A stretch of DNA of 64,000 nt from Candidatus Latescibacterota bacterium (lineage in GTDB: Bacteria; Latescibacterota; UBA2968; UBA8231): contig OZ242214.1 of the NCBI GenBank assembly GCA_965206595.1, positions 2,720,001 through 2,784,000 of the forward strand, read 5' to 3'. The position numbers and the translations under genes were made by a program. Of the stretch, positions 20,684 to 46,321 are shown in pieces. How positions within the stretch are numbered: the first letter of the stretch is position 1; every line of letters begins with the position of its first letter. The notes beneath the pieces are model-generated. The model did not search any database. It had not been told where the DNA came from and saw nothing but the letters and a program-made list of their open reading frames with translations.

Positions 20684-20689
20684 GGCTCG

Positions 20690-21458: not shown

Positions 21459-21642
21459 GGGGATTATATACATAATTCAGCAAGCCTGATTTAAGTAATC
21501 TCACCCGCGAATTTAAAGAAAATCTGGTATAATATTATAGAGAAAATACAGAAGAGAGGACATCCAGAGCCTCCAGTGTTTAGCCCCGAGCACGGAAGTG
21601 TGCCACCTTGACACCGTGAATCTGGGTCGATACTCGCATCAT
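21459..21642 (+). repeat. Left long terminal inverted repeat with inward extended -10 (TGGTATAAT, 21525-21533)
   Basis: Aligns with the reverse complement of ~46140-46321. Confidence 0.9.
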
Positions 21643-21659
21643 TTTCTGGATCTGCATGT

Positions 21660-21997
21660 CGTGGAAGCGACGAGAAATCATTCCGTCTGGTTGACGAGTT
21701 GACAAGGGGAGATAGCTGGGGATTCCTGAAGCAGGCTGATCCATGCTCAAGATCCCCCGAAAATCCTGACCCCAGGCTACCAGCAGGGGTTGTCGCCTTG
21801 GTGACCATCCTGATAGATCGGGGGCTTCATCCACAGACCCAGTTCGATTCGCGATACGGAAGCGAGGCACCAGGCAGCAGTTTTCATCTTTCTGACCATT
21901 CGAGAAGATTTCCCCGCTTTCTTCCACAGACCCAGTTCTACTCCCGATCCGGAAAACGGTTTCCTCCCGACTGACGAAAGGTTACCAGCAGGTCCTC
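21660..21997. repeat. Conserved post-transposase module built from degenerate ~90-115 bp repeats
   Basis: GGCTACSAGCAGG..GTTGTCRYCTT..TGACCAT..TCCACAGACYCAGTTC recurs at ~21775, ~21866, ~25629 and ~34154. Confidence 0.75.
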
Positions 21998-23007
21998 TTG
22001 GATCCGGAGAGCATCCCTGCATCCGGGATATGGCCCTGTTGCAGTCCGTTGATTTCACCGGGCTTTTCCACCTTCCTGACCTTGCGGAAGGGTTCGCCCT
22101 CCTTCCACCGATGATGAGTGAAGGGTCTCGGGGGGACCTCCGTCGCCAGCAGATCCCGGTGGGTCAGCGGCTTCCCAACCATGCCGGAAACAAGGGATTT
22201 CATCTGATCCAGGGTATCCATTCCTCGAAGATTGTGCCTGCCTGTGATCTCGTTGAGGTATTGGGGCAAATACTTGGGAGATAGGTGGCGATAGATGCCG
22301 TAGGTTCCCTTGATCTGAGAATTGAACGATTCAGCACGGTTCGTTGTGGCGTCGTCCCTGGCGTATTCACCGTTTTTGTGATTGACGACTTCGTGCCTTG
22401 CCGCCCATCGGAAATCGGAGTAGGCGGGTAACTCGTCGGTAAAAAGGGTGCCCCCCCGGCGTAGGTGTTTCTTCACGAAAGCGGACAAGGTCTCTTCCGT
22501 CTTTTTGAGGATCACCTCGGCGGCTACGCTGCCGGTTTCTCGGTCGTACATTACGGCGGCGATGCTGACGCCCTTCTGCCACTGGCGACCGAATTTCTTG
22601 TTGCGGTGCCTGTTTGGATCTTCTCCTCCGATATTGACTTCGTCTACTTCACCGACATTGCAGTTGAGGCTTTCCTGTTTGGGCCAGCCTTCCCGGATGC
22701 GATGCAGCATGAACAATGCGGATTTCTCCGTTAGGCCGAGGTCAAAGGCGAGCTGCCTGCCGCTGATTCCGTAGGGCCGGGTCAGATGCAGGTGAATTCC
22801 GATAGCCCACTTCCGCAAGGGGATCTTGGAGTTGGCCAAAACCGACCCGGTGCGAACGCTGAAGTGCTTCCGGCAGTCGCCGCACCAGTAGGGCCTGTTC
22901 GAGCGGTTGCGGCAGGCCGTAATCCGGTCGCAGCATCCGCAGTGAGGGCAGTATATGCGAACAGGAAGCCCGTCTACGAGCTCCCCCATCTGTCTTCGTC
23001 GAGCCAT
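21982..23007 (-). CDS. IS1595-family transposase, N-terminally truncated
   Basis: Zn ribbon CPHC...CGDC, HTH, EVDEVNIGG, LFTDE, HEVVNH, TNRAESFNSQIK. Confidence 0.9.
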   Translation of the reverse strand: MARRRQMGELVDGLPVRIYCPHCGCCDRITACRNRSNRPYWCGDCRKHFSVRTGSVLANSKIPLRKWAIGIHLHLTRPYGISGRQLAFDLGLTEKSALFMLHRIREGWPKQESLNCNVGEVDEVNIGGEDPNRHRNKKFGRQWQKGVSIAAVMYDRETGSVAAEVILKKTEETLSAFVKKHLRRGGTLFTDELPAYSDFRWAARHEVVNHKNGEYARDDATTNRAESFNSQIKGTYGIYRHLSPKYLPQYLNEITGRHNLRGMDTLDQMKSLVSGMVGKPLTHRDLLATEVPPRPFTHHRWKEGEPFRKVRKVEKPGEINGLQQGHIPDAGMLSGSKRTCW

Positions 23008-23242
23008 TTTTCTGCTCTGGGATCCTCAAGTGTTTAGCCCGGAACACGGCAACATGGTCATATGGCACCCTGAATCGGGGTCGATAGGCGCATCACTACC
23101 GGGTCTATTCGGGGGGCTACCGGGCAAGGAACCTCCAAATCAGAGAGCCCGTCGAGCCTGATCGTTCTGTGTGCAGAAAATTCGCCCCCTGCTTCAGATC
23201 GTGCAATCCGCTTGGGCGAGCAGGAGAAGGAGGAGAGGAGGC

Positions 23243-24151
23243 CTACTCCAAAGAGGCTTTGATCCGTCCCCAGGTAACGGACTCGACTGCCGTAGCCTGA
23301 GCGGGAAGCAACAGCCCATCGAGAAAGATATCCGCCATTGAATGAAACAGCCACCGGAAGGCTTCCTCGTCGTCAATGCCTTCCGGGTTCCAGGGTACTG
23401 GAGTATCTACATCAACGGAGGGATCGGAGGGATCGGAGTCGTGGATGACAGGTGCGAAACCGATGATCTGATTGGCGGACAGCTCGCTGAAAGGGATTTC
23501 AGCTATGCTGTCGCCCCATCCGTCCTGTGGCGTGACATACATCTCGACAACCCAGACAAAGGGGTTTTCTCCAGCTACACTTCCACCCGCATCTCCGTAG
23601 GGCGGGGAGGTGTGCCAGGGTTGGAGAAAGCTGTGTTCGCTGGCCAAGGTTGGGCCGCTTACTGTTCGTGAAATGGCCTCGTATTTCTGCGTTTCTCCAT
23701 AACTCGGCAATCTATCCTCAAGCGTACCGTAGCCATGGATGAATCCTTTGCCGCCGCTATGATCCGCATCGAGGTAAAGCGTAATGCTGTCATTAAGGGG
23801 AATCCATGGTATGATACCCTCTCCAGACCAATCATGGTTGTTCTCGTATTCATCGTCGATTACGATGAAGGCTGCATATATTCGGTTCAGTTCGTCGTGC
23901 CAAGCCAGCCAGATGCGGAAGTCGAGGTTGGAGGGATCAGGAGGGATATAATCATCGTTGGTCTTGAAATCCAGCAGGGTCATGTTGGGTTCGCCGATCT
24001 CATACCACTCGTCGACAAATCCATCGTGTATATTGATTTTTCTCAGCATTTCATCGGTAAGCTCGTAGAAGGGGTACAGGCGATTCCCGCTATGCGCTTC
24101 ACCCAAGCTCGCAAAAATCAGGACGATAAGAAGTCCACTAAGTACCTGCAT
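23243..24151 (-). CDS. Secreted CBM9/DOMON-like protein, copy 1
   Basis: Signal peptide (GEA|HSG), IHDGFVDEW, WLAWHDELNRIY, YLDADHSGG, C-terminal TAVESVTWGRIK. Confidence 0.65.
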   Translation of the reverse strand: MQVLSGLLIVLIFASLGEAHSGNRLYPFYELTDEMLRKINIHDGFVDEWYEIGEPNMTLLDFKTNDDYIPPDPSNLDFRIWLAWHDELNRIYAAFIVIDDEYENNHDWSGEGIIPWIPLNDSITLYLDADHSGGKGFIHGYGTLEDRLPSYGETQKYEAISRTVSGPTLASEHSFLQPWHTSPPYGDAGGSVAGENPFVWVVEMYVTPQDGWGDSIAEIPFSELSANQIIGFAPVIHDSDPSDPSVDVDTPVPWNPEGIDDEEAFRWLFHSMADIFLDGLLLPAQATAVESVTWGRIKASLE

Positions 24152-24173
24152 TGATTCCCCCTTGGGTTTCCAT

Positions 24174-25058
24174 TCAGAAGTCAACCAATCGAACCAGCCA
24201 GCCCCAAAAGGGCTCAGGACGGCTGGACAGGAAGCAATAGTTATCCCCATCCGGTGACCATGACAGCTGCAAGTCACTTTCATGGGAAGGAAGCCGGGTT
24301 ACCTTCGTTCCCTTCACGTAGACGCCTCCTATCCCATCTCGGTTGGAGAGAAATGCAACCTCTCCCTTTGAAGTCCAAACCGGATTCCAGTCTTTCGCGA
24401 AATGGTTTGTCATTCTTGTAATCGTCCCATCTAAATCTGCAATACAGATTTCCGGGTTACCGTAGCGGATGCACTCGAAGGCAATTCGAGTGCCTTCGGG
24501 CGACCACGCAGGACGAACATCCGGGCTGTCATGGCGGGTGAGGTTGCGGAGACGGCCTTCTTGGTCCGCAAGATAGATTTCCATGTTGCTGTCTCGGTAG
24601 GTTGTAAAAGCAAGTAGGCCGTTCTTTGACCAAGCTGGAAGAATTCCGTCCTGAATGATTTTCTTAATCTGGCCATCCTCAAGGTTCAAACTGAAGATAT
24701 CGTACGACTCTGCCTCCTCCGCGCCACCCCCAAATGCGATCTCAGTGCTGTTGGGATGCCAGGACATGCCAAGGGTGAAGGTCAGTGGTGATGGCATAGG
24801 AATCGTTTTCAACCGGTCCCCATCAGTTGAGATAAGTTGAAATGCGTTATCCTGTCGATCATGGTAGAGGATGTGTTGGCCATCTGGAGACCAAATGGGG
24901 TTAAAAGCCCCAGAATCAGACAGTCGCCGAACCTGATCGTTAATTTTGCAATAAACACTCCCGCTTTCGTGCCCATCCACAGGAGATAGCAAGAGGAGCA
25001 AGAGAGGCCCTATTCTAACGAAGCCCTGTTTAATTCCCATGGATTCGGAGAGGCCCAC
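24174..25058 (-). CDS. Secreted TolB-like PD40 beta-propeller, copy 1
   Basis: Repeated PIWSPDG / PAWSPEG / SWSPDG motifs, signal peptide. Confidence 0.9.
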   Translation of the reverse strand: MGLSESMGIKQGFVRIGPLLLLLLSPVDGHESGSVYCKINDQVRRLSDSGAFNPIWSPDGQHILYHDRQDNAFQLISTDGDRLKTIPMPSPLTFTLGMSWHPNSTEIAFGGGAEEAESYDIFSLNLEDGQIKKIIQDGILPAWSKNGLLAFTTYRDSNMEIYLADQEGRLRNLTRHDSPDVRPAWSPEGTRIAFECIRYGNPEICIADLDGTITRMTNHFAKDWNPVWTSKGEVAFLSNRDGIGGVYVKGTKVTRLPSHESDLQLSWSPDGDNYCFLSSRPEPFWGWLVRLVDF

Positions 25059-25179
25059 CTGAGTCGGACAACAACTGTTGGAAGCCAGCGATAAATTGCT
25101 TACCCTAGTGGCTTGGGTTCGCTACGGCCCCCGGCAACGGTCCAAACTTCCAAGTCTATCTGTTTGCTATGCCGGGGAT

Positions 25180-25225
25180 TCCACCGGGATTCTCAAGCGC
25201 GTCGGGATAAGAGAATCCCGGTGGA
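25180..25225 (-). terminator. 15-bp perfect hairpin between the peptide and TolB genes
   Basis: TCCACCGGGATTCTC-16nt-GAGAATCCCGGTGGA; second copy at 33336-33381. Confidence 0.55.
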
Positions 25226-25254
25226 CGGACAACTGCCTTCCTCCATTTAGTTCA

Positions 25255-25482
25255 TCACTGGTCACAACACATGCATTGATAGCCGTTCCCGTAAAGCTCG
25301 GCATGACTATGGCTATGACTCCAGCAGTGGTAGCCACACATCCATTGCTGTGCTACGGATGTATGGTGGCCGTATTCCTCAAGCGATCGCGGAGGAGAGT
25401 GAGCACCAACATAGGTAATGGCAGTTAGAGAGACTCCAATTGCCATCAAAGCGCTAATTATGAGGCTTTTTCGGCGAATCAT
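25255..25482 (-). CDS. 75-aa secreted His/Cys-rich peptide, variant 1
   Basis: GAGGAGG RBS; signal peptide ending VGA; mature HSPPRSLEEYGHH...WMCGYHCW...QCMCCDQ; two paralogues of identical length. Confidence 0.85.
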   Translation of the reverse strand: MIRRKSLIISALMAIGVSLTAITYVGAHSPPRSLEEYGHHTSVAQQWMCGYHCWSHSHSHAELYGNGYQCMCCDQ

Positions 25483-25830: not shown

Positions 25831-26793
25831 TCAGAACCCATCCGGATTTGTCACCGTGGTGACCTTGAGAAAGGGTTCGCCCTCCTTCCACCGATGATGA
25901 GTGAAGGGTCTCGGGGGGACCTCCGTCGCCAGCAGATCCCGGTGGGTCAGCGGCTTCCCAACCATGCCGGAAACAAGGGATTTCATCTGATCCAGGGTAT
26001 CCATTCCTCGAAGATTGTGCCTGCCTGTGATCTCGTTGAGGTATTGGGGCAAATACTTGGGAGATAGGTGGCGATAGATGCCGTAGGTTCCCTTGATCTG
26101 AGAATTGAACGATTCAGCACGGTTCGTTGTGGCGTCGCCCCTGGCGTATTCCCCTTTTTTTGTGATTGACGGCTTCGTGTCTTGCCGCCCATCCGAAATC
26201 GGAATAAGAGGGATACTCGTCGGAAAAAAGCGTGCCCCCTTGGCGTAGGTGTTTCTTGATGAAAAGGGATAAGGTTCTTCCTCTGTCCTGTCGGGGATCA
26301 CCTCGGAGGCTACCTTGCCGGTGTCCGGGTCGCACATTACGCCCGCGATGCTGACGCCCTTCGCCCAGTTGTGGCCAAACCTCTTGTCGAAATGCCTGTT
26401 TTTATCGACTCCCCCGATGAAGACTTCGTCTACTTCACCGACCCGGCAGTTGAGGCTTTCCTGTTCTGGCCAGCCTTCCCGGATGCGATGCAGCATGAAC
26501 AATGCGGATTTCTCCGTTAGGCCGAGGTCAAAGGCGAGCTGCCTGCCGCTGATTCCGTAGGGCCGGGTCAGATGCAGGTGAATTCCGATAGCCCACTTCC
26601 GCAAGGGGATCTTGGAGTTGGCCAAAACCGACCCGGTGCGAACGCTGAAGTGCTTCCGGCAGGCTCCGCACCAGTAGGGCCTGTTCCCGTGTTTTCGACA
26701 CGCCGTTATCCGGTCGCAGCATCCGCAGTGAGGGCAGTATATGCGAACAGGAAGCCCGTCTACGAGCTCCCCCATCTGTCTTCGTCGAGCCAT
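25831..26793 (-). pseudogene. IS1595-family transposase, truncated, with two compensating frameshifts
   Basis: Paralogue of 21982-23007; the central TLSLFIKKHLRQGGTLFSDE segment is in another frame. Confidence 0.88.
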
Positions 26794-27028
26794 TTTTCTG
26801 CTCTGGGATCCTCAAGTGTTTAGCCCGGAACACGGCAACATGGTCATATGGCACCCTGAATCGGGGTCGATAGGCGCATCACTACCGGGTCTATTCGGGG
26901 GGCTACCGGGCAAGGAACCTCCAAATCAGAGAGCCCGTCGAGCCTGATCGTTCTGTGTGCAGAAAATTCGCCCCCTGCTTCAGATCGTGCAATCCGCTTG
27001 GGCGAGCAGGAGAAGGAGGAGAGGAGGC

Positions 27029-27928
27029 CTACTCCAAAGAGGCTTTGATCCGTCCCCAGGTAACGGACTCGACTGCCGTAGCCTGAGCGGGAAGCAACAG
27101 CCCATCGAGGAAGATATCCGCCATTGAATGAAACAGCCACCGGAGGGCTTCCTCATCGTCAATGCCTTCCGGGTTCCAGGGTATTGAAGTCTCTACATCA
27201 AAGGAGGGATCGGAGTCATTGATGACAGGTGCGAAACCGATGATCTGATTGGCGGACAGCTCGCTGAAAGGGATTTCAGCTATGCTGTCGCCCCATCCGT
27301 CCTGTGGCGTGACATACATCTCGACAACCCAGACAAAGGGGTTTTCTCCAGCTACACTTCCACCCGCATCTCCGTAGGGCGGGGAGGTGTGCCAGGGTTG
27401 GAGAAAGCTGTGTTCGCTGGCCAAGGTTGGGCCGCTTACTGTTCGTGAAATGGCAGAGTATTTCTGCGTTTCTCCATAACTCGGCAATCTATCCTCAAGC
27501 GTACCGTAGCCATGGATGAATCCTTTGCCGCCGCTATGATCCGCATCGAGGTAAAGCGTAATGCTGTCATTAAGGGGAATCCATGGTATGATACCCTCTC
27601 CAGACCAATCATGGTTGTTCTCGTATTCATCGTCGATTACGATGAAGGCTGCATATATTCGGTTCAGTTCGTCGTGCCAAGCCAGCCAGATGCGGAAGTC
27701 GAGGTTGGAGGGATCAGGAGGGATAAAATTATCGTTGGTCTTGAAATCCAGCAGGGTCATGTTGGGTTCGCCGATCTCATACCACTCGTCGATAAATCCA
27801 TCGTGTATATTGATTTTTCTCAGCATTTCATCAGTAAGCTCGTAGAAGGGGTACAGGCGATTCCCGCTATGCGCTTCACCCAAGCTCGCAAAAATCAAGA
27901 CGATAAGAAGTCCACTAAGTACCTGCAA
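27029..27928 (-). CDS. Secreted CBM9/DOMON-like protein, copy 2 (TTG start)
   Basis: Near-identical to copy 1 apart from clustered substitutions. Confidence 0.65.
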   Translation of the reverse strand: MQVLSGLLIVLIFASLGEAHSGNRLYPFYELTDEMLRKINIHDGFIDEWYEIGEPNMTLLDFKTNDNFIPPDPSNLDFRIWLAWHDELNRIYAAFIVIDDEYENNHDWSGEGIIPWIPLNDSITLYLDADHSGGKGFIHGYGTLEDRLPSYGETQKYSAISRTVSGPTLASEHSFLQPWHTSPPYGDAGGSVAGENPFVWVVEMYVTPQDGWGDSIAEIPFSELSANQIIGFAPVINDSDPSFDVETSIPWNPEGIDDEEALRWLFHSMADIFLDGLLLPAQATAVESVTWGRIKASLE

Positions 27929-27949
27929 AGATTACCCCTTGGGTTTCCA

Positions 27950-28675
27950 TGACGACTGTTTCATTAAAGTTAGACACTCTTGTCCAAAACAATGTTTGAA
28001 AATGGTGGTTGAAGCCCTCCGGGGTGTGTTGCATGTTGTGGTGTGCAGACCAAGCAATACAACACATCACTACAACAGGAGGGCTTCGGTGTCATGGTAC
28101 GGCAAGCGAGTCTGTTCAGTCAATTGCTGCGGCAGGTGCCGCGCAGTGAATTCGATCATCTGGTACGCCAGCACGGGGCCGAGAAATGGGCGAAGGGATT
28201 CACCTGCTGGACGCAGTTCGTGGCCATGCTGTTCTGCCATCTGGGACGGGCGGACTCGCTACGTGAGATCTGCCATGGCTTGGCCTGTTGCGTAGGCAAG
28301 CTGGTGCACATCGGGATCGGCCGGGCGCCCAAGCGCTCGTCGCTGTCCTACGCCAACGCCCATCGGCCGGCGGACCTGTTCGAGGATCTGTTCTGGCACT
28401 TGGCCGATCGCCTGCGGAGTCGGGAGGGCCTCGGTCAGCGCAAGACGAAGTTCCGCTTCAAGAATAAGCTGATGAGCCTGGACTCGACGACCCTCTCCCT
28501 GTGCCTGTCGCTGTTCCCGTGGGCCCGCTTTCGACGCGCCAAGGGTGGGGTCAAGGTGCACGTGCTGCTGGACCATGACGACTACATGCCCTCCTATGTC
28601 CTGCTGACGGAGGCACGGCGACACGACCGGATGGGCGCGCGTCTGCTCAGCCTCAACCCCGGGTCCATCGTCGCC
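27950..28675 (+). mobile_element. IS4-family element (DUF4372 transposase), 3'-truncated
   Basis: MVRQASLFSQLL...WTQFVAMLFCHL...SLDSTTLSL...KGGVKVHVLLD; begins where the TolB 3' end would be expected. Confidence 0.85.
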
Positions 28676-28679
28676 CCGT

Positions 28680-29283
28680 CAGCCCCATCAATCGACGCAC
28701 GCGCTTGCGGCCGACTTCATACCCCTAGCGCGGCAGGTGACGGGCCATCTGCCGCGACCCATACCAGGGCGTGGCCAGAAACTGCTCGTCGATACAGCGA
28801 ATCACCTGCCGGTTGAAGGCACTCCCTCCGACCCGCGTATACGTAGGTGGACGCGACAGGGCAACCAAGGTGCACGGGCGCACGACAGGGAGCCGGAGAT
28901 GATCTGGTTCGATCATCGCTTCCCTTCGGTCGCGGCTCAACGGCCGAAGGCGCGAGACAAAAAACGTTCTCGACGGTCAGCTGGCCGATTTTGGCGTGCA
29001 ACGCCTTGCCTCGGCCGCATGATCCGCGGCGCGGGAAGAGGTCTTGCGGGCGAACACCTCCGGCAAGCTCTCCGTGCTTGCCGTTTCCACTGCGCAATCA
29101 CGTTGGGGTGCAGGTTATGCTTGGCAGCGAGCTCGGCCAGGCCCTGGTCGCCGACCAGGGCCTCCAAGGCGACTTTGCCCTTGAACTGAGCGGAAAAGCT
29201 ACGCGGTTCCCCATGTCTCCAGTCCTTCCGAAGAGGGGTTGGATCCACCTAACGTAACTGTCCGAATTTCGGGGTCCACTTCT
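28680..29283 (-). mobile_element. IS3-family remnant (orfA and start of orfB), heavily frameshifted
   Basis: FSAQFKGKVALEAL...HPNVIAQWKRQ; IDEQFLATPWYGSRQM; AGTGGACCCCGAAATTCGGACA end. Confidence 0.85.
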
Positions 29284-30191: not shown

Positions 30192-30524
30192 TCAAGATCG
30201 GCCTGAATGCGCCCCCGGAGTCGAAAACGGTACTCTGTAGCTTCCCGTCGACATCGAGCCCCGGCATTTCTCCAAGGGGATCGGGGAGTGAGACAACCCC
30301 GTTCCGGGACGAACGCTGAACCGCCTTCGGCAGGCTCCACACCAGTAGGGCTGAGCGAATCTGGAATTCCTGGTAATACGGTCGCAGCATCCACAGTGAG
30401 GGCAGTATATGGAGACGGGTAAGTCTTCTACGAATTCTCCCCATCTTACCTCTTCGAACCATTCTTCCGCCGAAATATTATCATCAATTTTAACCGTTAA
30501 CGAGATACCTTTGTAATTGTTCAC
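30192..30524 (-). pseudogene. IS1595 transposase N-terminal fragment
   Basis: AEEWFEEVRWG...IYCPHCGC...YWCGACRRRFSVR; homology ends after the Zn ribbon. Confidence 0.85.
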
Positions 30525-30732
30525 TACGATTACCTTCGAGCCGTGGAATACCGTACTGAGACCAGCGGCTCTCTTCAAATATTGTGATTCACGCTCCCAT
30601 ATCATCCTTTCGGTTTCAGAGGGAAGGTGACTCCGTCGGTGTGCACCGACAGCAGGGACTGGGAAGCGGAATGCTGCCGGCTTCCCGTGTTCAATGTGCC
30701 TTTATTGTACCTGGGCTGAACTAAAAAATCAA
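30525..30732 (-). promoter_or_regulatory. Transposase promoter and leader, copy B
   Basis: TTGATT-17-TACAAT (30732-30704), palindrome 30635-30650, mini-ORF ATG GGA GCG TGA (30600-30589). Confidence 0.7.
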
Positions 30733-31179
30733 ATTAGCCTTAGGAGGAGGTTTATAAAACCCACAATATGGCGGAGAGAAACTTAAATTTCTGGGAGCAG
30801 GAGGGGGGCAGGACAGGGGAGGGGGCTGCTTCCTCGGTAATCGGCGGAACGGAGTCAGCTACGAGGTCGAAGCGGGAAAGAGGAGAGATTTCAGGAACGG
30901 CTGTGTCGAGGTGCGGCTACGGAACTGCGAGGTGAGGCATCTCCAAAGCTGGCGAACCGGCAGGCGGTGGGTGGCCCTGGGCACGGTCTTTGCTGGGATT
31001 CCGCTGCGGGAAGAAGGGGGTTTCTCCCTGCGGAGTATACGGAAGCTGACGATTCGCGAGGGATCCTCCCGTTGCCTTGCACACCCCCTTGGGAAATCGG
31101 CACCGTGGATCGGAAGGTCGGGGTATCCGAGCCCGAAATTACCTCTGAGTGCAGGGGTTGACGGGATTCGGCCTTGCGA

Positions 31180-31405
31180 CGCATAACGTGCGACGCTGGA
31201 GCAACTCATCGCAGCCTCACCGCTGGGTAGCCACGGCGTTGCTGGACATCGAACCGCGTCTGCGCCGGGTCAAAGGCTACCGTCACTTGCCAACGCTGCG
31301 ACACGCCCTGCAAGCCAAACTCGGAATCAAACAGCTCGCCAGGGCGGGCTGATCAATCAACGCAACTGAGCCTGTGCTTGTTTCAACTGAAAATGGGACT
31401 TGCCC
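31180..31405 (+). mobile_element. IS256-family 3' remnant
   Basis: NVRRWSNSSQPHRWVATALLDIEPRLRRVKGYRHLP; ends in TTTCAACTGAAAATGGGACTTGCCC. Confidence 0.75.
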
Positions 31406-31412
31406 GGCTGGC

Positions 31413-35296: not shown

Positions 35297-35511
35297 TTCG
35301 ATTACCTTCGGACCGTGGAATACCGTACTTGAGACCTGCGGCCCTCAAAAAACAGTGTGATTCACGCTCCCATAGGATTCCTTTCGCGTAGTAGTGGGAA
35401 GGTGATCTGTCGGTGTTCACCGACAGAAAAGACTGGGGAAGCGGCAGCGGATTCCTGCCGGCTACCCCTATGAGTTACCCATTAGTGTACCTGGCTGAAC
35501 TAAAAAAGCAA
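35297..35511 (-). promoter_or_regulatory. Transposase promoter and leader, copy A
   Basis: TTGCTT-16-TACACT (35511-35484), GC hairpin ~35434-35468, palindrome 35407-35426, mini-ORF 35373-35362. Confidence 0.7.
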
Positions 35512-36068: not shown

Positions 36069-37085
36069 TCATTCTCTCAATAGTCCAATGCACTCCCGAG
36101 TTGCTGCTGAGCTAAACCCGGACTTAATAAGAGTTGCATTGTCTCTAATTGCCTGTGGGGTGTCGGTTGGCCAGTCTTCCTTATCTATTACAATTATCTT
36201 AGTACCATGTTTCAGTTGGCTCAACAAGATATACTCTATTTCTTCATCCCTAAATGAAAACCCAACAAAAATTACAATGTCAGTGTTTCGTGCAATATGG
36301 TTTAAATAATCATAAAACTTATCAAATGGATGTTCATGTGGTCGGCCTTTAAATCCAGGATATAGAACGGGGTGATTGTTAGAATCAAATCCCTCGTCTT
36401 GAACGCTGCAACATTGTATTACTCCATCTTTCCATTTCCAATCTACTGATCCATGCAGCTTTGTGAATAACCCTTTTTGTCCTAAACGAACAGGGGGAAT
36501 TACCCAATGCTTTGTATCCAAAATTACATAGTCCCCATTGTCATCCAATGTTCTGCCTCTTTCAAGGCTCTTTGTTAGGGTTTCTTTGTCTCCAGAAATT
36601 GCTCGATCAATAACCAAATCGTAATTAGTCGTAAAAATTTCCAATGGAGGAGATAAGGACATGAGATTCTTAAAAAATTCTGTCAAATACTTGGGAATTC
36701 TAAAATCACTTGGACAGTAAACTGAATTGATAGTCTTGCATATTATATCACGCAAACTTTGTAATTCATTAACAAATCCTGGTATCCTTCTAAACTCGTT
36801 ATTAGTGTGTAAATCATTGAAAAATGATCTCCATAAATGTCCTACAACTTTATCGCGATTATTTATATCTGAGAAATGATCGATAGCACTCTCAACTTCC
36901 CGCAATATTCGTTCAATATCGACGGGAATCTCCCTATCCATCTGCATATATTTTACAATTAGTGCATAGAATGAAGAGGTTTTTGCGCTGTCTGGCAAGC
37001 ATTTTTCGTAAAACTCCACCATAGTAGGAAACTTCTCTTCATCTATCGCCCGGGAGCAGCCAGCACCCACGAATAGCAAGATCAT
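36069..37085 (-). CDS. SIR2-like (SIR2_2) domain protein
   Basis: FVGAGCS, FTTNYD, KLHGSVDW, FVGFSFRD; low GC. Confidence 0.9.
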   Translation of the reverse strand: MILLFVGAGCSRAIDEEKFPTMVEFYEKCLPDSAKTSSFYALIVKYMQMDREIPVDIERILREVESAIDHFSDINNRDKVVGHLWRSFFNDLHTNNEFRRIPGFVNELQSLRDIICKTINSVYCPSDFRIPKYLTEFFKNLMSLSPPLEIFTTNYDLVIDRAISGDKETLTKSLERGRTLDDNGDYVILDTKHWVIPPVRLGQKGLFTKLHGSVDWKWKDGVIQCCSVQDEGFDSNNHPVLYPGFKGRPHEHPFDKFYDYLNHIARNTDIVIFVGFSFRDEEIEYILLSQLKHGTKIIVIDKEDWPTDTPQAIRDNATLIKSGFSSAATRECIGLLRE

Positions 37086-37359: not shown

Positions 37360-37665
37360 TTCGGTTCCTCCTCCACATGGAATGAATGAATAAGTGCTCT
37401 CAACCTACTCCAACTTTTCCCGAGCCAGCGGTAATTTCCGGGTACGTGTAGCATCAGGAAATCGAAGTACCAAATACCAACTCTCTGGGCTCTTCCTTAT
37501 CAGTACTCAATATAGCTTCCATAGCTTCCAAACCTTTTCGGCGGCAAGGGGCACCGAGGGAAACAACCGGGGAATGCCTGATCCATAGCGCGATTTCGCC
37601 AAAAAACTTGGTATAACATAGTAGAGCAAGGCGTTTACTCCCCTCACCGCAGGATCTGGAACTGC

Positions 37666-38215
37666 CCGCTTTCCGCGATCCGAAGGACTGCATCCGAATC
37701 ACGGTTTCCAAACTCCCCCAAGCACCGCCGGCAGGCGATCCGGGAACCGACTTCCTCCTGTCGTTTCTCTGTTGCCCTAATCTCATATCACGCTGAATCC
37801 ATACCGAAAACAGCATAGTAGTGAGTCGACGCAGTTGCCGCTACCGGCTCGCTGAATTCTGGAACGGTATTTCCACCTTCCAATCCCGATTCTAACGGGG
37901 ACCCGAATTCCTGTCAACATTCCGCGCCGGCTGGGTTTCAGGACCGGCTCAAGGGCCGTTCTGTGTCCTTCTGTCGGTGTCCACCGAAAATCAACCACCC
38001 AAATGGAGAGAATGAAAGATGGAGCAAAATCAGCTAAAAAGGGCGAGAGACGCCCTTGGCATGAAGCAGTGGGAGCTGGGCATCGCCCTTGGTGTCAGTG
38101 AGGCCGAAGTGTGCCTGTGGGAGAAGGGGAAGCGAATGATGCCGGAAAGGTATCTCCGTCTCATGGGAGCGATCATCCACCACCAAGAGCGGGGCTTGAT
38201 CCTCTCCTACAAGGC
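37666..38215 (+). repeat. Left arm of an internal ~550-bp inverted repeat (partner ~41470-42020)
   Basis: Shared upstream blocks (GAAGGACTGCATCC, AATCACGGTTTCC, GACGCAGTTGCCGCT, GGGCCGTTCTGTG) and a near-identical XRE gene. Confidence 0.85.
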
Positions 38216-38753: not shown

Positions 38754-40490
38754 TCACAAGCTACCGCTACGCAACTCGCCTCCTACGACTGTGGCGACAG
38801 GCTCAATCGTGTGGATTCTGTCTGTATCCATTTCGAACAGGTTTTCCGGAAGGACAATAAAGTCTGCGATCATCTTGGCCTTGATGGAGCCGATTCGTCC
38901 CTGCTGTCCGAGTTGTGCGGCACCGTTGACCGTATAGCCAGCAAGGGCCTGTGCCAGTGAGATTCTGGCATCCAGGGGCGGCATGATAGCGGCATCGACC
39001 TTCCCCGGTTCCTGTCGTGTCATACTCATTTCAATGCCGAGAAAGGGGCTCACCCTCAGCGGATTGTACACCACGTCGCTGGACAGGGTGACGTTGACCT
39101 GCTGGCGCATGAACTCCCCGACAGCCTGAGAGCGGGAGGCTCTCTCCGGTCCTACGTTAATCTCCTCTGCATCGCTGTACACCGTTCCGCCAAACCAGTG
39201 TGGAGTAAAGTCGGCGTGTACATCCAGCTCTTGAAAGCGCCCTATGTCGCTGTCGGCAACTGAGAACAGATGGCTTAGCGTGACCTCGATTCCCAAGGGA
39301 CGTGCCAGCATTATCTGAGCCTGTTCTACCGCGTCCAGGATGTTCCTGGTAGCCCGGTCGCCCGACGAGTGCAGGTGCAGATCGATATCCTCCCTATCCA
39401 GCTCCTGTACGAAGTCACTCAATCGCTGCGTAGTGAACAATACGCCGCCATAGTTATCAGGGTCGGTGGCATAGGGCTCCAGCATGGCGGCTGTAAGAAT
39501 GTCCGGCATCCCATCGTAGTGAATTTTGATGGTGTTGAACTGCAGCTTACCGTAGGCATACTGATCCCTCAGATGGAGCAGGGATTCGACTGCCGTATCA
39601 ATCTGATCCGGTGCCCATATGTGGTAAGAACCTTCCCAACGTAAGGGGAGGTTGCCTTCTCGTGCAATGTCGTGTGCTGCCTGATAGACCTTATCGTCCA
39701 TGTTAAAGTTGCCGGCATCCCACAGGGTTGTGATACCCTTGCTTGACATGTAGTTCAAGTATTTCAGCAGCCGTTCCTTCAGCTCGTCATCACCCGGTAC
39801 GAACTTGTCTCCGAAGTATGGCAGCAGGGCGAACTCCTTGACCCAGCCGGTAGGTTCGCCATTCTCGTCACGAACGAAATAAGACAGGTTCCTGCTGAGA
39901 TCCGGAGTGTTTCTATCGATGCCGAGCCACCGCAGGAAGGCGGAATTTACCCAATAGCTGTGTCCCGAATTGTCGTTCAAAATGATGGATCTCCGTTTGG
40001 AGATATTATCCAAGTCTCTCTTGTGCGGACCGTCAGGCAAGTAGGTGGAAAGATCCCATACTCCCTGTCTGATTACAAGGGTAAACGGGTTGTCGTCGGC
40101 GTACTGCTGTAGCCAGGATAACGTAGCCTCTTTTGGAGTGGACGGCATTCTGTCCGGAGGAACCCAGGTTTCGTCCAGAACCGACAAATTGCCTCCAGTG
40201 GCAATCAGGCCGGGATGAGTATGTGAATCGATTATACCCGGCATCACGAACTGATTCTTCAAGTCTACAACCTTGGCTCCCCCGGCGATGTATTGCATGG
40301 CTTCCTGAGTAGAGCCGCCGACGAAGATAATCCTGTCGCCTAATGTTACCAGGGACTCAGCCCAAGGTAGATCGGGGTCCTGCGTATAGATCCGTCCATT
40401 CAAATACACCGTTTGGACGGCTGGCTCGGAGGCTATAGCGGCTCCAGCGAACCCTACAACACAAGGCAACCATCTCATAAGGGTTGTCAT
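38754..40490 (-). CDS. Exported amidohydrolase-3 (YtcJ-like) metallohydrolase
   Basis: PGIIDSHTHP, KIHYDG, HLHSSGD, LSSD, GSIKAKMIADFIVL. Confidence 0.9.
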   Translation of the reverse strand: MTTLMRWLPCVVGFAGAAIASEPAVQTVYLNGRIYTQDPDLPWAESLVTLGDRIIFVGGSTQEAMQYIAGGAKVVDLKNQFVMPGIIDSHTHPGLIATGGNLSVLDETWVPPDRMPSTPKEATLSWLQQYADDNPFTLVIRQGVWDLSTYLPDGPHKRDLDNISKRRSIILNDNSGHSYWVNSAFLRWLGIDRNTPDLSRNLSYFVRDENGEPTGWVKEFALLPYFGDKFVPGDDELKERLLKYLNYMSSKGITTLWDAGNFNMDDKVYQAAHDIAREGNLPLRWEGSYHIWAPDQIDTAVESLLHLRDQYAYGKLQFNTIKIHYDGMPDILTAAMLEPYATDPDNYGGVLFTTQRLSDFVQELDREDIDLHLHSSGDRATRNILDAVEQAQIMLARPLGIEVTLSHLFSVADSDIGRFQELDVHADFTPHWFGGTVYSDAEEINVGPERASRSQAVGEFMRQQVNVTLSSDVVYNPLRVSPFLGIEMSMTRQEPGKVDAAIMPPLDARISLAQALAGYTVNGAAQLGQQGRIGSIKAKMIADFIVLPENLFEMDTDRIHTIEPVATVVGGELRSGSL

Positions 40491-41298
40491 TCTCTTCTTC
40501 CTTCTCGGGAGGGGCGAAAAGAAACTCCACAGCTGTTTTACAGCCGAGTGGGGGTTTTTACAATCCAGTAGTCCACAAAATAGCTGTTTTCTTCAGAATC
40601 GAATTCAGGCGCATCTATGGCGACAGCGTGGGCGAAAGTGCCTCGGGGTTCATCCCCCTGACGCTGAAACAAGAGGTCGTCGTCCTCCCAGGCAAGGATC
40701 GAAATCAGAACACCGATCAGCAAAAATGCGATGGGACTGAACCCGTTGGGGGGCTTCCTCGGTCCCCGGCATGGAAAGAGGATGCGGAAGCCGAATCCGG
40801 GAATTCGGGAGAACTGCCGCGCCCTTCTTCCTTCCACCTTGGCAGGTAATCATGACGATTCTACCAGCTAAAGGATAGGCGGAACGAATTCCACCTACCC
40901 CTTGGTCGGCTCCCTACCGGCTGCGCCAGTGGTTCAAGACGATCTGAATACGGATTCGATTTTCTTTCTTGTTTCGTCCTTCATGGGGTTCCTTTCGGGG
41001 ACAGGTTGGCGCTTGCAGATCCAGGAGATCAGGAAGCTGGATAACGCGCGCATGGATCAGAGCGGGGGGGGTTCGGTCCACGGAGTGAAATGTCCAATTT
41101 TGGACATTTCGTATTTCTCCGATGGCGAGGAGAGAGAATTAGTGGCAGAGGGAATCGAAGACGGGTTTTTGACGAATCGGCATAAATGCTGGAGTGCTCT
41201 TTCCGGCTCAAGAGCCTACGCTCGGGGGCATAGCTCAATAGACGGACAAGAGGCTCCAGCCAAGTGCCTTCCAGCCTGAACGATCCCCCCTGCCGCAA

Positions 41299-41457
41299 CT
41301 ATCCGTCATCGTCTCCAGTTCTCTTTTCTTCTTCGGGGTCTTCCTTCTCCTTCTCGCTGCACGGGATGCATATGTGCTGCTCCGGAGCGGGCCTGTAGAA
41401 CAGGTGCCAGGGCCTGATTTCCTGGCCGCATACGCAGCAGACGGGCTTGAATACCAT
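41299..41457 (-). CDS. Small CxxC...CxxC Zn-finger-like protein
   Basis: CCVC...CIPC; starts 4 nt after the XRE copy 2 stop. Confidence 0.6.
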   Translation of the reverse strand: MVFKPVCCVCGQEIRPWHLFYRPAPEQHICIPCSEKEKEDPEEEKRTGDDDG

Positions 41458-41461
41458 CTTG

Positions 41462-41668
41462 TTACGACCCAGCTTTGTAGGAAAGGCGTAAGCCATTTTC
41501 CTGGTGATGGATGATGGCTCCCATGAGACGGAGATACCGTTCCGGCATCGTTCGTTTCCCCTTCTCCCACAGGCACACCTCGGCCTCACTGACACCCAGG
41601 GCGAGGCCCAGCTCCCATTGCTTCATGCCGAGGGCGTCTCTCGCCCTTTTCAGCTGGTCTTGGGTCAT
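41462..41668 (-). CDS. XRE-family HTH regulator, copy 2
   Basis: Near-identical to 38019-38264, inverted. Confidence 0.9.
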   Translation of the reverse strand: MTQDQLKRARDALGMKQWELGLALGVSEAEVCLWEKGKRTMPERYLRLMGAIIHHQENGLRLSYKAGS

Positions 41669-42197
41669 TTGCAGTCTCCATTTTCAAAGGATGATTGTCG
41701 GTGGACACCGACAGAAAGGCACAGAACGGCCCTGAACCGGCCTTGAAGCGGAAAGCCGGAAGCAGGGTGTTGAGAGGGTATTCGGGTTACGGCAGGATCG
41801 GGATTAGAGGGAGAATCCCGTGGCAGAATTTCAGCGATCCGGCAGCGGCAACTGCGTCTGCTTCACTTCATTGCGAGGATAACGTGTGCCGAGGCTAGAA
41901 GGCACGAGATCGCCCCGGTGCCCGAGACCATCTCGGGCAATGAAAATCGCCTTGGCGGCGGGGGTGGGGAAGTAGGAAACCGTGATTCTGTGGGATGCAG
42001 TCCTTCTGGATCAGAAAGCGTGGTCGAAGTCCTGCAGGGGAGGGAGAATAATCAGCGGGAACCCGACATTTGCTGCGGGCTCTGGTGACAGATTGGCCCT
42101 ATGAAGATAGAGTGGAAGCACTGGCTTTCAAGAAGAAACTGCGTATATTCACAGTATTCTATTGTCCACCAGTGCACGGGTGTGCAGGAGGGTCCAG

Positions 42198-42478: not shown

Positions 42479-43012
42479 ATGAAAGAGATTATCTCTCCAC
42501 AAACCAGAACTGATGTGTGGGAAGGAAAGTGCTACATCGACTTTCTAAGCCGATACTATGGGAGTCTTTCGGATAAATACGCAAACTACCATATGTACCT
42601 CAGATTTTTTCTCCTAGCCCCTGTAGGGAGTATCTATGTGTACATCAAAGACTATCCTTGGGCTGGAGAAATTTCTGTGATCTCTGGAGTACTGATAGGT
42701 GTTTTCGCCGTATGGGATCACCTGTCTGCCTATCAGAAAAAGCATACCGTGGCAAATATGATTGCAAGGGAATGCCAGACATTGGAAGTAGAATTCAATG
42801 ATTTATGGAATTCCGCGAATTCCAATCTCATTGGGAATGATGAAGCCAAACGCCAACTCAAGGTGTTAAATAGGAAAAGGACAGCAACCACGACTGTGGC
42901 TAGGCTATCAGGGATAACCCACGACGACTATGCCTTGAGGGATAAGATGGAAGAAGAATCGAACGTATTTGTTGAAGGGCGACGAAAACCTATGAAAGGA
43001 GAATTGGCATGA
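42479..43012 (+). CDS. Two-TM protein with a helical tail, SLATT-like
   Basis: AAGGAG RBS; two adjacent hydrophobic helices followed by an amphipathic helix. Confidence 0.5.
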   Translation: MKEIISPQTRTDVWEGKCYIDFLSRYYGSLSDKYANYHMYLRFFLLAPVGSIYVYIKDYPWAGEISVISGVLIGVFAVWDHLSAYQKKHTVANMIARECQTLEVEFNDLWNSANSNLIGNDEAKRQLKVLNRKRTATTTVARLSGITHDDYALRDKMEEESNVFVEGRRKPMKGELA

Positions 43013-43491: not shown

Positions 43492-44461
43492 TCGGCGATT
43501 TTGGAATTTTCCATCGTCCTTTCATCCTCTAAATCGATGCGTTCTAGCATCCTTCCGTACCCGCCAATGATTCGCCACGGTACGGATCCCACCCGCATTC
43601 AAAGCCGCAACGGGATAATTCCCTTTCTTTTACATAAGGTTATACCAGATTTTTTGTAAATTCGCGCTTTTTATCGGGACTCTACCGCCTCTTTGTCGGG
43701 GGGGTATGTCTCCCTTTTTCCGAAAGGATCAGGGGCGGAATGGGGCTAACTCCCTTCGCCTCCCTCTTTGGTTCTCTCCCTTTGGCCTTGCGCAGTTGAT
43801 TCCCAGTCTTGCGCAGTTTGTTGCGAGCTGCTGAATCCTTGGCGATTGGGCCTCGAAGTCGAAGGAACGCTGCGAAGTGCCGTTCCTTTCGGCGATTTTC
43901 TTCTGCTTGCCGGATCGGCATCCCCCTTTGTCTCCATGTCAGGTTCGAACTTCTTGGCCGGTTCCCTGAGCTTCGGTCAGAAAGGTGCCAGAGCCTTCAA
44001 AGCCTGATCCACGGAGGTAAATTGCCCCAATTTGGGTTAATTAATAGCCGTACTCCGGGTGATGCCGACGGCTCGCCCTCTCCGAAGAGAGGAAGTCGCG
44101 GGGAAACCCCGAGTCGTTCAGGAGGGTCATCACCCCGTAGCGGGCTCCCGAAGGGCCTCGTTGTTTCGTCGGTTTACGAGCACCTGGTACAGTCCCCACC
44201 GGCGGCATTCTGCCCTGGGACAACCGTCTTCGGTCAACTACGAAAATAACGACCCTTGAAAGTGAGAATCAAAACAGAAAACTGCCCGCGGAATCGGGGG
44301 TAACCTCATACCAATGTGTCAATTTTCGAATTTGCTTACGCATTGACCAAGGAATTTGCCGTAGCTTTTGGATATGGGCGATGGTCGGTACAGAACTGAT
44401 ACTGACTGACTGTGGCCTGATTGGGGGTCGGAGCAAATTGGCACTCACTAGTAGATTGACC

Positions 44462-45916
44462 ATGGCACTACGAACCGCATTCGATGACTACCTGGCATTT
44501 CTTACCAGCAACCCAGTAAACAGGGATGGCGACGACAGAAAACCATCCCCCGTTCAGGGTAGGATGCATCCGATACGCACCACGGCTGAGAGAGGCGAAT
44601 GCACGACACAGTTTACACGCTTGGTGAAAAGAACAAAAGTACAATTTGCCAAGGATCCTGACGGGGAGGGAGATGACAGATGGCGATCCAGCGTGCAGAA
44701 TGTCTTGCGGCGAGCGAGGATCTATGCAGACACACTCGACGGCGCACATTCCGCTGAGAAACTATTTCAGAGGTTCGATGCGGCCTTTTCACGGAGCGAA
44801 ATCATAACCGACACCCTGGCTCCGCTTGAGTTCGTTGAATTCTCGGCTGATGGCCCCTTTGAGTTCGGCACCTTCCGTGTAATGAAGTTCTCAGAGCTGG
44901 AATTAAGGACGATAATTGAGAACGATACTCGTGAAATATTTTGGCCAGATTCTACACTGGATACGCCCCTTCTCAGTCAATACTGGTGGCTTGTCGTCAG
45001 TGGGAAAAGGGACCCAGATTATGCAGGACAACTTTTTGAAATAACAGAGTTCCTAGAAGGACCTGTTGTTGAACGCCGGTATGGAAATTTCCCACCAGAT
45101 GTTGAACGTGCCTTAAAGGCGCTTGTCCTATTTGATTGGGACTTCGTTGGAATCTCCTACCCAGGACCGAGGGACATCGACCGTTATCTTCCGGATATAC
45201 AGAATAACGGGTGGTTTGGGTTCAACCTTCCCTTTGTCCTGCGATCCGGTGGGAGCTTGTACTGCCCGCCCCCTCAGGCACCGGACATCTCCAGACTTTC
45301 ACTTGACCCGGTCTTCGACCCCGATGGTGTTGAGTATGGCGTAAGTCCCACACGCGCCATCTATCCTGACTCCAACTCCTTTTTTCGCACAGTAACCGAA
45401 TTCGAAAGCCAGCTCAACATAGTCCGGGCTCAGACTGACCGGTGGCAGTTCATTGACGTCGCAGTCGGGTACTTGGTCAAGGCGTTTTTTTCCGACGAAC
45501 TGGATCAGCTTCTTTGGCACATAACGGCAATTGAAGCCCTGCTAGGTGAGCGAAGAGGGGGGCTGACCGAAACACTGGCTCAAAGATGTGGATTGGTCTT
45601 GAGTTCATCCAAGGAGGACCGAAAGAAAATAAAGAATTCCTTCCGGAATCTATATGACATCCGGTCGCACATTGTCCACGGAAACACTAACCAGCCCCAA
45701 GCCCGTGAAGGGCATCTTGCCATTGCCAGGAATATCGCTCGCGATGCAGTCGTGTGGTTCTTACGGTACTTGTGCTTTCTTGCTGATGACATTCCCGCGC
45801 ACGATGAACGTCATCCAGAGCGTCCCGAGCTTCTCTCTGCACTCGATATGGGGAAGGAAGAGCGCGAACGTCTCTCATACCTACTAGGGCGCCTACCACC
45901 CAGCTTTCCCAGCTAG
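44462..45916 (+). CDS. HEPN (Apea-like) domain protein
   Basis: C-terminal AIEALLG...LYDIRSHIVHG (Rx4H); start uncertain. Confidence 0.8.
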   Translation: MALRTAFDDYLAFLTSNPVNRDGDDRKPSPVQGRMHPIRTTAERGECTTQFTRLVKRTKVQFAKDPDGEGDDRWRSSVQNVLRRARIYADTLDGAHSAEKLFQRFDAAFSRSEIITDTLAPLEFVEFSADGPFEFGTFRVMKFSELELRTIIENDTREIFWPDSTLDTPLLSQYWWLVVSGKRDPDYAGQLFEITEFLEGPVVERRYGNFPPDVERALKALVLFDWDFVGISYPGPRDIDRYLPDIQNNGWFGFNLPFVLRSGGSLYCPPPQAPDISRLSLDPVFDPDGVEYGVSPTRAIYPDSNSFFRTVTEFESQLNIVRAQTDRWQFIDVAVGYLVKAFFSDELDQLLWHITAIEALLGERRGGLTETLAQRCGLVLSSSKEDRKKIKNSFRNLYDIRSHIVHGNTNQPQAREGHLAIARNIARDAVVWFLRYLCFLADDIPAHDERHPERPELLSALDMGKEERERLSYLLGRLPPSFPS

Positions 45917-46139
45917 CAAGCAATTCTGAGACAATTAACCACCCAAGAACGATGGCGGCCTACACGCTTTTAAGACTCCACCCCCTTCCGGCAGCATTTA
46001 GTCCGGCGTCAGGTCCGCCCTACTCGAAATCGCCCAGCACATAATGTCTAATGAAAGGAGGAGTTGCCTACGGCCCGACGCGCGGAAATCCGCATCCCTC
46101 CTGGATCAGGGCGGCAGCTCGCAGTTCTTCCCCAAAAGA

Positions 46140-46321
46140 ATGCTCGCATCGATCCCGATCCCACGGTGTCAATCTGGCATTCCTCCGAGTTCGGGGGTTA
46201 AAGCAGTGGGACGGGGATGTCCAATTCTCTGCATTTTCTTCTATTATTTTATACCATATTATCTTTAAATTCGCAGATGAGATTACTTAAATTACCTTGC
46301 TGAATTATGTATATAATCCCC
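46140..46321 (-). repeat. Right long terminal inverted repeat
   Basis: Reverse complement aligns with 21459-21642. Confidence 0.9.

Follow-up and report, generated by a model that had tools for sequence, protein, structure and literature searches.

A 24.9-kb element with IS1595-type ends in a Candidatus Latescibacterota genome and its relatives in two sister genomes

Simple elements of the IS1595 family of insertion sequences (IS) are about 0.7-1.3 kb long with one transposase gene, and their passenger-carrying forms, the transporter IS (tIS), reach a few kilobases. IS1595 elements with passenger genes were the first case to blur the line between insertion sequence and transposon, and the zinc ribbon of the family's transposases is absent only in the IS1016 group. 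One passage of PMC8101967 attributes to the family an 8-bp target duplication, a zinc finger and a DDE domain, copies in Ralstonia measure 700-1287 nt according to a passage of PMC7371123, and PMC11891212 and PMC3129680 both, where they treat the subject, credit the tIS concept to Siguier, Gagnevin and Chandler 2009. Here we describe a far larger DNA segment in a 64,000-nt stretch of a Candidatus Latescibacterota bacterium genome (assembly GCA_965206595.1, contig OZ242214.1, positions 2,720,001 to 2,784,000 of the forward strand; hereafter the window, whose positions we use as coordinates). The segment, which we call G0, occupies 21459-46321 (24,863 bp) and lies within an ISL3 transposase gene of the genome G000. 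We put at about three in four the probability that G0 inserted as one unit, at about its present size and bounded by inverted tips, into an ISL3 copy, a reading built on direct observations of the ends and duplications, of the empty sites, of the family of the transposase and of the lack of inner ends. Among the genomes searched, the family to which G0 belongs is confined to one genus, and its members are mostly 25-49 kb long, with defence systems and repeat-protein genes.

The tips of G0 are perfect inverted copies of the 26-mer GGGGATTATATACATAATTCAGCAAG, at 21459-21484 on the plus strand and 46296-46321 on the minus strand, and the whole window has no other match at up to three mismatches (0 of 100 shuffles had a match). 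Inverted similarity continues beyond the tips at 77.8% over 189 nt (21459-21645 against 46321-46134), and the octamer GGTCGATC adjoins both tips, at 21451-21458 and 46322-46329. The initial annotation had proposed perfect 26-bp tips, imperfect similarity to about 180 bp and a clean 8-bp duplication on both sides, all of which we find, with imperfect ends that extend to about 187 bp. The borders and the interrupted gene are made up as follows.

20683..21458, minus strand: 3' part of the ISL3 gene with the DDE domain (Pfam DDE_Tnp_ISL3, 6.4e-60); its last 8 bases are the left duplication copy
21451..21458, no strand: target duplication, left copy GGTCGATC; four uninterrupted ISL3 copies have this octamer once
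21459..21645, plus strand: left inverted end, a perfect 26-bp tip followed by an imperfect repeat with the family-wide block CCGCGAATTTAAAGA..TGGTATAAT
46134..46321, minus strand: right inverted end, of which 46296-46321 form the perfect 26-bp tip
46322..46329, no strand: target duplication, right copy GGTCGATC
46330..46999, minus strand: 5' part of the ISL3 gene with the zinc ribbon (Pfam); the limits of the IS come from alignment to other genome copies

That the segment splits an ISL3 transposase, as had been claimed from the start, is borne out by both halves of the gene: Zn_ribbon_ISL3 is found to the right of the segment, in the open reading frame (ORF) 46305-46868(-), and DDE_Tnp_ISL3 profile positions 47-238 to its left, in ORF 20690-21433(-). 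Removal of the segment and one repeat copy in silico restores a 1,446-bp ISL3 (20683-21458 joined to 46330-46999) whose frame stays open for 455 codons. G000 contains at least 12 further ISL3 copies, and the search for uninterrupted ones that the initial annotation had recommended yielded four (99.6-99.9% alike), all four contiguous across the site with the octamer present once. These four copies serve as paralogous empty sites.

We extended the search for ends to 61 genomes, namely G000 and 60 relatives. The end sequence of G0 matches G000, G001 and G002, which belong to one genus, and gives a weak 49-nt match in G010. An end-specific 26-nt pattern was found in 11 stretches of a 185,579-species collection, 11 of 11 in the G001 and G002 records (Candidatus Latescibacterota metagenome-assembled genomes), and had 0 matches in a metagenome contig collection. 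Every adjacent pair of (+) and (-) ends, G0 included, is flanked by a perfect 8-bp direct repeat (7 of 7 pairs, 56 of 56 bases), and the seven octamers are all different, with no sequence in common. The search for other end pairs with different 8-bp duplications, which had also been recommended, thereby gave six in the two sister genomes, five of them of 25.9-48.5 kb.

G1a, G001:C11:1182940-1208810: 25,871 bp, duplication AACGCCAC
G1b, G001:C11:1961238-1965811: 4,574 bp, duplication ATCGAGGC
G2a, G002:C3:1304677-1339122: 34,446 bp, duplication GAACGAGG
G2b, G002:C3:1941107-1986021: 44,915 bp, duplication CTCGTAGC
G2c, G002:C3:4234635-4283179: 48,545 bp, duplication CGACGCGA
G2d, G002:C3:6017644-6058067: 40,424 bp, duplication ACCAGAAC

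Six of the seven duplication-flanked elements are at least 24.9 kb long and none is a simple IS of about 1 kb, nor did we find a free-standing simple IS of the family in G000, G001 or G002. The initial annotation had considered that such ends might always bound IS copies of about 1 kb; the opposite is seen. For G2a, G2b and G2d, the two flanks align side by side in G000 (80-92% identity) and overlap there by exactly 8 bp, and the G2c flanks meet in G000 to within a few bases, so the G002 giants are precise insertions relative to the sister species. For G1a only repeats in the flanks matched G000, and the flanks of G1b had no match there. Within G000, the 182-bp left end matches 17 places, and nine further full or near-full ends have no adjacent partner. 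The ends at G000:C1:3233153(+) and 958103(-) are both flanked by the octamer ATGCAATC, on the same strand, 2.27 Mb apart and with the minus end upstream, and they seem to be an element split by a large rearrangement, or else an assembly mis-join. Two apparent sister copies were rejected. G001:C10:1708297 has a 26-bp tip identical to that of G0, but only about 210 bp in common with it and no partner end on the contig. A 6,228-bp duplicate (G000:C1:423989-430216 against 89371-95598, 99.98%), considered as a second copy of a sibling element, is part of that element's interior at a second site without an element end, and since the end is excluded it is not evidence of unit transposition.

The genomes are metagenome-assembled, and read support takes the form of assembled contigs (Logan) from four public runs compared with 20600-40599. 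One might ask whether the 24.9 kb were mis-joined into an ISL3 copy through repeats: G000 is very repeat-rich, with its 12 or more ISL3 copies and another IS in about 30 copies, the ends with the common flank ATGCAATC could themselves reflect a mis-join, and no contig crosses the left junction, 21458/21459, among the matches listed for the four runs. A mis-join, however, would not make inverted tips that exactly abut a direct repeat of 8 bases that are single in uninterrupted ISL3, the same architecture occurs six times in two other assemblies, and the contigs of run X15 cover 30 of 30 bins of the 20 kb without mismatches, with pieces that span internal joints such as 27950 (for example 27868-28790). 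On these comparisons mis-assembly appears very unlikely. In all four runs contig sequence departs from the window at 21458 and continues as uninterrupted ISL3; it represents the other ISL3 copies and does not prove an empty allele.

The more serious question is whether G0 was already large when it arrived. It could instead have grown in place, if a small IS1595 element like the 4.6-kb G1b, which carries related p346 cargo, entered the ISL3 and swelled to 24.9 kb by tandem duplication of a transposase/PD40/p346 unit, nested IS and recombination with siblings or host paralogs. The left half of G0 does form a tandem-like array on the minus strand, in which a unit consists of a spacer, a PD40 beta-propeller gene, a p346 gene, an IS1595 transposase gene and a downstream region. 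Unit A spans 21853-25609; unit B (25615-27950) matches the 21853-24173 part of unit A at 91.8% identity and ends within p346 at IS4-family debris; unit C (31410-33766) matches 23240-25609 of unit A at 96.5% identity and is preceded by a transposase remnant at 30192-30605. Growth in place would also account for the IS debris of the interior, for a PD40-p346 cassette that has 91% identity to a pair on the chromosome, at G000 819,998-821,517, and for an end vestige without a tip that lies 2.6 kb inside the right end. Against this stands the state of the interrupted gene. The target ISL3 differs from the uninterrupted, active copies by 4.5%, without a stop or a frameshift and with 32.5 synonymous against 30.5 non-synonymous differences (dN/dS 0.26), so most of the divergence dates from a time when selection still acted on the gene. 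Were all non-synonymous changes later than the disruption, neutral divergence since then would not exceed about 2.9% per site, and duplicates made in place would be bounded at about 5.8%. Paralogs inside G0 differ by 8-15% (tnpA and tnpD by 15% in DNA, units A and B by 8%), above that bound, which suggests that the multi-transposase interior most likely pre-dates the insertion and arrived with the element. Growth in place is also at odds with the large size of six of the seven duplication-flanked members, the absence of a simple form of about 1 kb among them, and the seven duplications that are all still perfect, and we consider it improbable.

Several points weigh against insertion as a single large unit. 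The dating argument presumes similar neutral rates and no recombinational import of diverged paralogs, and no contig among the matches listed bridges the left junction, as said above. Just one of the four transposase copies of G0 is intact (tnpD, its activity predicted from sequence), the right end has only 187 bp in common with the left and lacks the subterminal motifs of longer ends, and the interior has taken on later debris, such as the IS4-family remnant that cuts p346B. We see no two elements that are near-identical at different sites, so that no recent whole-unit jump has been caught. In addition, G2c and G2d have in common an inverted block of 26 kb that is 84-96% identical (10.3 kb at 89%), and their ends are 70-74% identical. 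Cargo more alike than the ends means that interiors or ends have been exchanged by recombination and that the interior can change after insertion, as growth in place would have it; for the same reason we downgraded this common cargo as proof of unit movement. One-step movement of 24.9 kb is nonetheless the most economical reading, in which G0 would have been near its present size on arrival, and the class of large unit transposons with an IS1595-type transposase and 8-bp duplications, as first suggested for G0, is supported and extended by the relatives.

How the ends are built bears on where such elements come from. The IS1595 transposase cluster is the sole ORF cluster common to all seven elements (1-4 copies each), and in 7 of 7 the 3' end of one transposase copy lies 429-917 bp from a tip. 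G2a, G2b and G2c have a transposase copy in both ends, with the C-terminus towards the tip, inside inverted ends of 2.0-2.4 kb with 81-95% identity; in G2b the two end-resident transposases are identical in protein, and in G2c the first 610 bp of the two ends are 100% identical. G2d has inverted ends of 2.6 kb with a degenerate right-hand transposase copy. Inverted ends are shorter in G1a (about 540-717 bp), G0 (187 bp) and G1b (86 bp), and in G0 and G1b just one of the ends has a transposase, the right end of G0 having none. The long transposase-bearing ends are what one might expect of a decayed compound transposon, in which inverted IS1595 pairs flanking chromosomal DNA were moved by their outer ends and later lost the inner ones, with G0 as a derivative without the right-end transposase. 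Apart from one nested end in G2c, however, we found no inner tip-like sequence in the seven elements, and none beside the end-resident transposases, so they are not classical composites; the transposase sits at one end only in G0 and G1b; and the building block that is needed, a free-standing simple IS, was not found in the three genomes. An origin of this kind seems to us doubtful; it concerns ancestry and is compatible with present-day unit movement. The initial statement that the segment is not a composite stands for G0 and does not carry over to the G002 relatives, whose 2-2.6 kb ends resemble a composite without inner ends. The nested end in G2c, at G002:C3:4268279 (G2c position 33645), is a complete family end with an intact tip beside a damaged transposase gene, and has no partner.

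Across 21 of 21 aligned ends the outermost 120 bp or so are strongly conserved, with tips that read GGG(G/A)ATTAT or GGGATATAT. The tip GGGGATTAT of G0 fits the end consensus of the ISNwi1 group, ggnnatTAT, and this group is a candidate assignment for G0. All 21 ends also have the block CCGCGAA(T/A)TTAAAGA..TGGTATAAT followed by an inward-reading, hairpin-like GGAC..GTCC (G0 positions 21504-21535 and 46245-46276). The block resembles an extended -10 promoter; a sigma-70 scan made no call on it at either G0 end, and an Rfam search of 20000-48000 returned nothing at gathering scores. A k-mer search for subterminal repeats found little, and two subterminal consensus motifs recur in the long ends, the right end of G0 having neither. 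We looked for internal tip-like sequence in G0 and found none, and the sole internal trace of ends in it is the following.

43620..43666, minus strand: vestige of the subterminal end block, without a tip, 2.6 kb inside the right end

This vestige is probably an older right boundary, and given its position the gene for a 511-aa protein that now lies outside it may have been added later.

The initial annotation counted one intact and three damaged IS1595 transposases in G0, and we arrive at the same count.

21982..23007, minus strand: tnpA, IS1595 transposase paralog (Pfam PF12762, 4.2e-26); 524 bp separate its 3' end from the left tip
25831..26793, minus strand: tnpB, damaged IS1595 transposase paralog, scrambled around the second aspartate
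30192..30605, minus strand: tnpC, N-terminal remnant of a more diverged IS1595 transposase
34271..35296, minus strand: tnpD, the only intact IS1595 transposase in G0 and candidate driver (PF12762, 8e-26)

By alignment, tnpA has had its conserved N-terminal 30 residues replaced; its DNA identity to tnpD is 84.6%. The tnpD protein scores 91.3 bits against PF12762 (cut-off 27) and 130.6 bits against NCBIfam NF033547 (cut-off 75), and its zinc ribbon reaches 17.2 bits against PF12760, under the cut-off of 25.4, with cysteines C44, C47, C66 and C69 that are conserved in at least 90% of aligned sequences. Among 18 aligned sequences D146, E250 and K257 never vary, and D215, like the four zinc-ribbon cysteines, is conserved in at least 90%. 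A tree of 32 sequences places the end-resident copies with tnpA, tnpB and tnpD, mutual closest relatives, in a 'terminal' clade, and the slowly evolving copies beside a RadC-like gene in G2a, G2b and G2d in a 'middle' clade, of which G1a has a copy too. The terminal clade has in common a C-terminal extension, TEVPPxPFTHHRWKEGEPFRKV (tnpD residues ~312-341, window 34271-34360), which the middle clade and generic IS1595 transposases lack. When tnpD was searched against 5.8 billion proteins, about 37 of the 120 homolog clusters listed were at least 50% identical and the rest were generic IS1595 transposases at 40-47%; a scan of metagenome proteins gave a best match of 44% identity, to generic IS1595 elements only.

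Under the unit-insertion reading, movement would be by cut-and-paste. A DDE transposase, for which tnpD (34271-35296) is the only intact candidate in G0, would bind the two outermost ends and cut at the GGG(G/A)ATTAT tips; the cut tips would be joined to a target opened with an 8-base stagger, and repair of the stagger would leave the 8-bp duplication. Because the internal transposase copies lack ends of their own, all DNA between the outermost ends would move together.

Comparison with described systems places the family closest to the tIS of IS1595. Like these, it has a single IS1595-type DDE transposase, short GG tips, an 8-bp duplication and passengers outside transposition, and G0 itself shows a DDE_Tnp_IS1595 domain, an 8-bp duplication and tips that start with GG. 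It differs in that its members are 25-49 kb long with dozens of genes, against a few kilobases for tIS, in having several transposase paralogs per element and no simple IS form that we could find, and in the inverted ends of some members, which reach 2.6 kb and contain a transposase gene. G0 is outside the size range of IS1595 and tIS at 24,863 bp with four transposase genes, and its relatives measure 4.6-48.5 kb. The passenger-carrier chassis of IS1595 appears here at 25-49 kb, an order of magnitude above the few kilobases of tIS. With compound transposons such as Tn5 and Tn10 the family shares two inverted, transposase-bearing ends around unrelated cargo, presumed movement by outer ends and one target duplication; in contrast to them, its end segments lack inner inverted repeats, the transposase of G0 and G1b is at one end only, and G0 does not have two complete IS copies at its ends.

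A similar balance holds for other large or related elements. Tn7-like carriers of defence systems, as one part of PMC8649781 presents them, are likewise large transposons with cargo rich in defence systems and mobile elements. Our Pfam scans took in 26 ORFs of G0 and 185 of the six relatives (109+70+6), excluding three border-straddling ORFs of 114-162 aa, and among these 26 and 185 ORFs there was no TnsA, TnsB, TnsC, TniQ, Tn3 transposase or tyrosine or serine recombinase; the only other transposases were those of nested IS (IS630-, IS21-, IS4- and IS5-like). The family therefore differs from Tn7-like elements in lacking TnsA, TnsB, TnsC and TniQ in these scans, in a duplication of 8 bp against 5 bp, and in the absence of site-specific targeting, the seven octamers all being different; Tn3-family elements and integrase islands do not fit it either. 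Eukaryotic Merlin elements, in the account of a section of PMC8101967, resemble the family in their DDE_Tnp_IS1595 domain and GG tips, with duplications of 8-9 bp and inverted repeats of 24-462 bp, and differ in being small, eukaryotic and without a zinc ribbon, with no cargo of this scale described in that section. A full-text search of the literature gave no account of IS1595-type transposons that are tens of kilobases long.

Besides its transposases, the interior of G0 holds the following features.

23243..24283, minus strand: p346A, with a signal-like N-terminus, member of a host gene family; no Pfam match at E 0.01
24174..25058, minus strand: PD40/TolB-like beta-propeller A (Pfam PD40, 3.6e-20; TIGR02800 below cut-off), upstream partner of p346A
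27029..27928, minus strand: p346B, its 5' part missing from about 27950
28043..28816, plus strand: N-terminal part of an IS4-family transposase (Pfam DUF4372, 1.1e-26; NF033592 below cut-off)
31178..31406, no strand: 229-bp repeat (IS end or miniature inverted-repeat transposable element) with 8 other genome copies at 80-90% identity
31413..33219, minus strand: p346C and PD40 C, in unit C
35408..35429, no strand: 22-nt palindrome TGTCGGTG..CACCGACA upstream of tnpD, also at 30634, 37972 and 41696
36069..37085, minus strand: SIR2-like protein, G+C 38% (Pfam SIR2_2, 1.9e-9; PADLOC SIR2, 76.1 bits)
37587..38215, minus strand: module U1, relic of a family-specific gene of about 200 aa (C3), inverted partner of U2
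38754..40490, minus strand: amidohydrolase with a signal-like N-terminus (Pfam Amidohydro_3, 4.8e-64)
41124..41858, plus strand: module U2, second partial C3 relic, inverted relative to U1
42479..43012, plus strand: 177-aa protein with hydrophobic segments; no Pfam, NCBIfam or PADLOC match
44381..45916, plus strand: 511-aa protein; no Pfam, NCBIfam or PADLOC match

PD40-p346 pairs are a host gene family, of which the chromosomal pair mentioned above is the nearest copy outside G0; p346 has 90 tblastn matches in the 7-Mb G000, many in tandem arrays and often paired with a PD40 propeller gene. Its likeness to CBM9 is a language-model lead only (PF06452, Atlas). The IS debris of the interior runs from about 27951 to 30190, and 28665-29294 within it has multi-copy matches. 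Sites of the palindrome TGTCGGTG..CACCGACA lie 5' of tnpC and tnpD and within both C3 relics, and the palindrome may be an operator. The SIR2-like protein has a homolog in G1a (ORF cluster C20), and its assignment as defence-type cargo is supported by these profile matches. In the 511-aa protein we see by eye an R-x4-H motif of the HEPN type, the link to HEPN_Apea being a weak lead only. The ORF at 35569-36309, a candidate regulator, appears spurious over most of its length. Of the cargo classes first listed for the element, the defence gene is thus found, secreted proteins are plausible from signal-like N-termini seen by eye, and regulators are not borne out, as none was confirmed.

Cargo in the relatives is more varied.

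G2a: complete type I restriction-modification system with a YgjP peptidase; ORC/Cdc6-like kinase protein; three WD40 proteins
G2b: dndA-E, PLD-helicase, GmrSD, NYN, a 1,556-aa NOV_C protein and an ankyrin protein
G2c: Cas3-like protein; LRR and WD40 proteins
G2d: C25 peptidase
G2c and G2d: 3,000-aa Fn3 proteins; IS21 genes
G1a: SIR2, DUF1232, WD40 and DUF3102 proteins

A SWIB/DnaJ gene is found in five of the seven elements and RadC in four of the seven, G0 having neither. Most large members keep a module made up of a RadC-like JAB gene, SWIB/DnaJ, a second transposase and two small genes. The pair of RadC-like gene and middle-clade transposase, with SWIB/DnaJ nearby, lies at 20390-21934 in G2a, 15854-17325 in G2b and 14207-16290 in G2d. 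The group of RadC-like gene, middle-clade transposase and SWIB/DnaJ also occurs once in G000 (C1:6047048-6050494), with no family ends nearby. Tentatively, and with more doubt than confidence, we speculate that these elements form a giant class without a simple IS form, with an IS1595-type DDE transposase and long inverted ends, that is the main vehicle for defence islands and WD40, ankyrin, LRR and Fn3 proteins in the lineage, and that the module, with its second, slowly evolving transposase paralog, may enable transposition of 25-50 kb.

The ISL3 copy that received G0 lies within a type I restriction-modification locus fragmented by IS copies.

9066-12101: hsdR
19270-20219: IS630-like element
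46801-48006: hsdS, whose frame runs into the ISL3 end
52527-55124: hsdM

Between hsdS and hsdM are genes for an AAA ATPase and an S8 peptidase, and the locus falls within a stretch of about 50 kb of lower G+C than its flanks. The IS630-like stretch 19500-20132 has about 30 further matches in G000, at 73-75% identity; insertion sequences are unusually abundant in this genome.

Seven independent target duplications, together with precise empty sites, give this family unusually clean boundaries for elements of such size. Its members also offer a natural series for the origin of long ends and cargo, from a 4.6-kb form through forms with a transposase at one end to forms with a transposase in each 2-kb end. 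If the module does aid movement, the system would have two transposases, or a transposase with a helper, and would not be a plain IS. If G0 moves as a unit, a one-protein DDE system with ends of about 190 bp can carry tens of kilobases, a possible use of which would be as a tool for the insertion of large cargo, and such movement would bear on how defence islands and symbiosis-type repeat proteins spread among uncultured bacteria.

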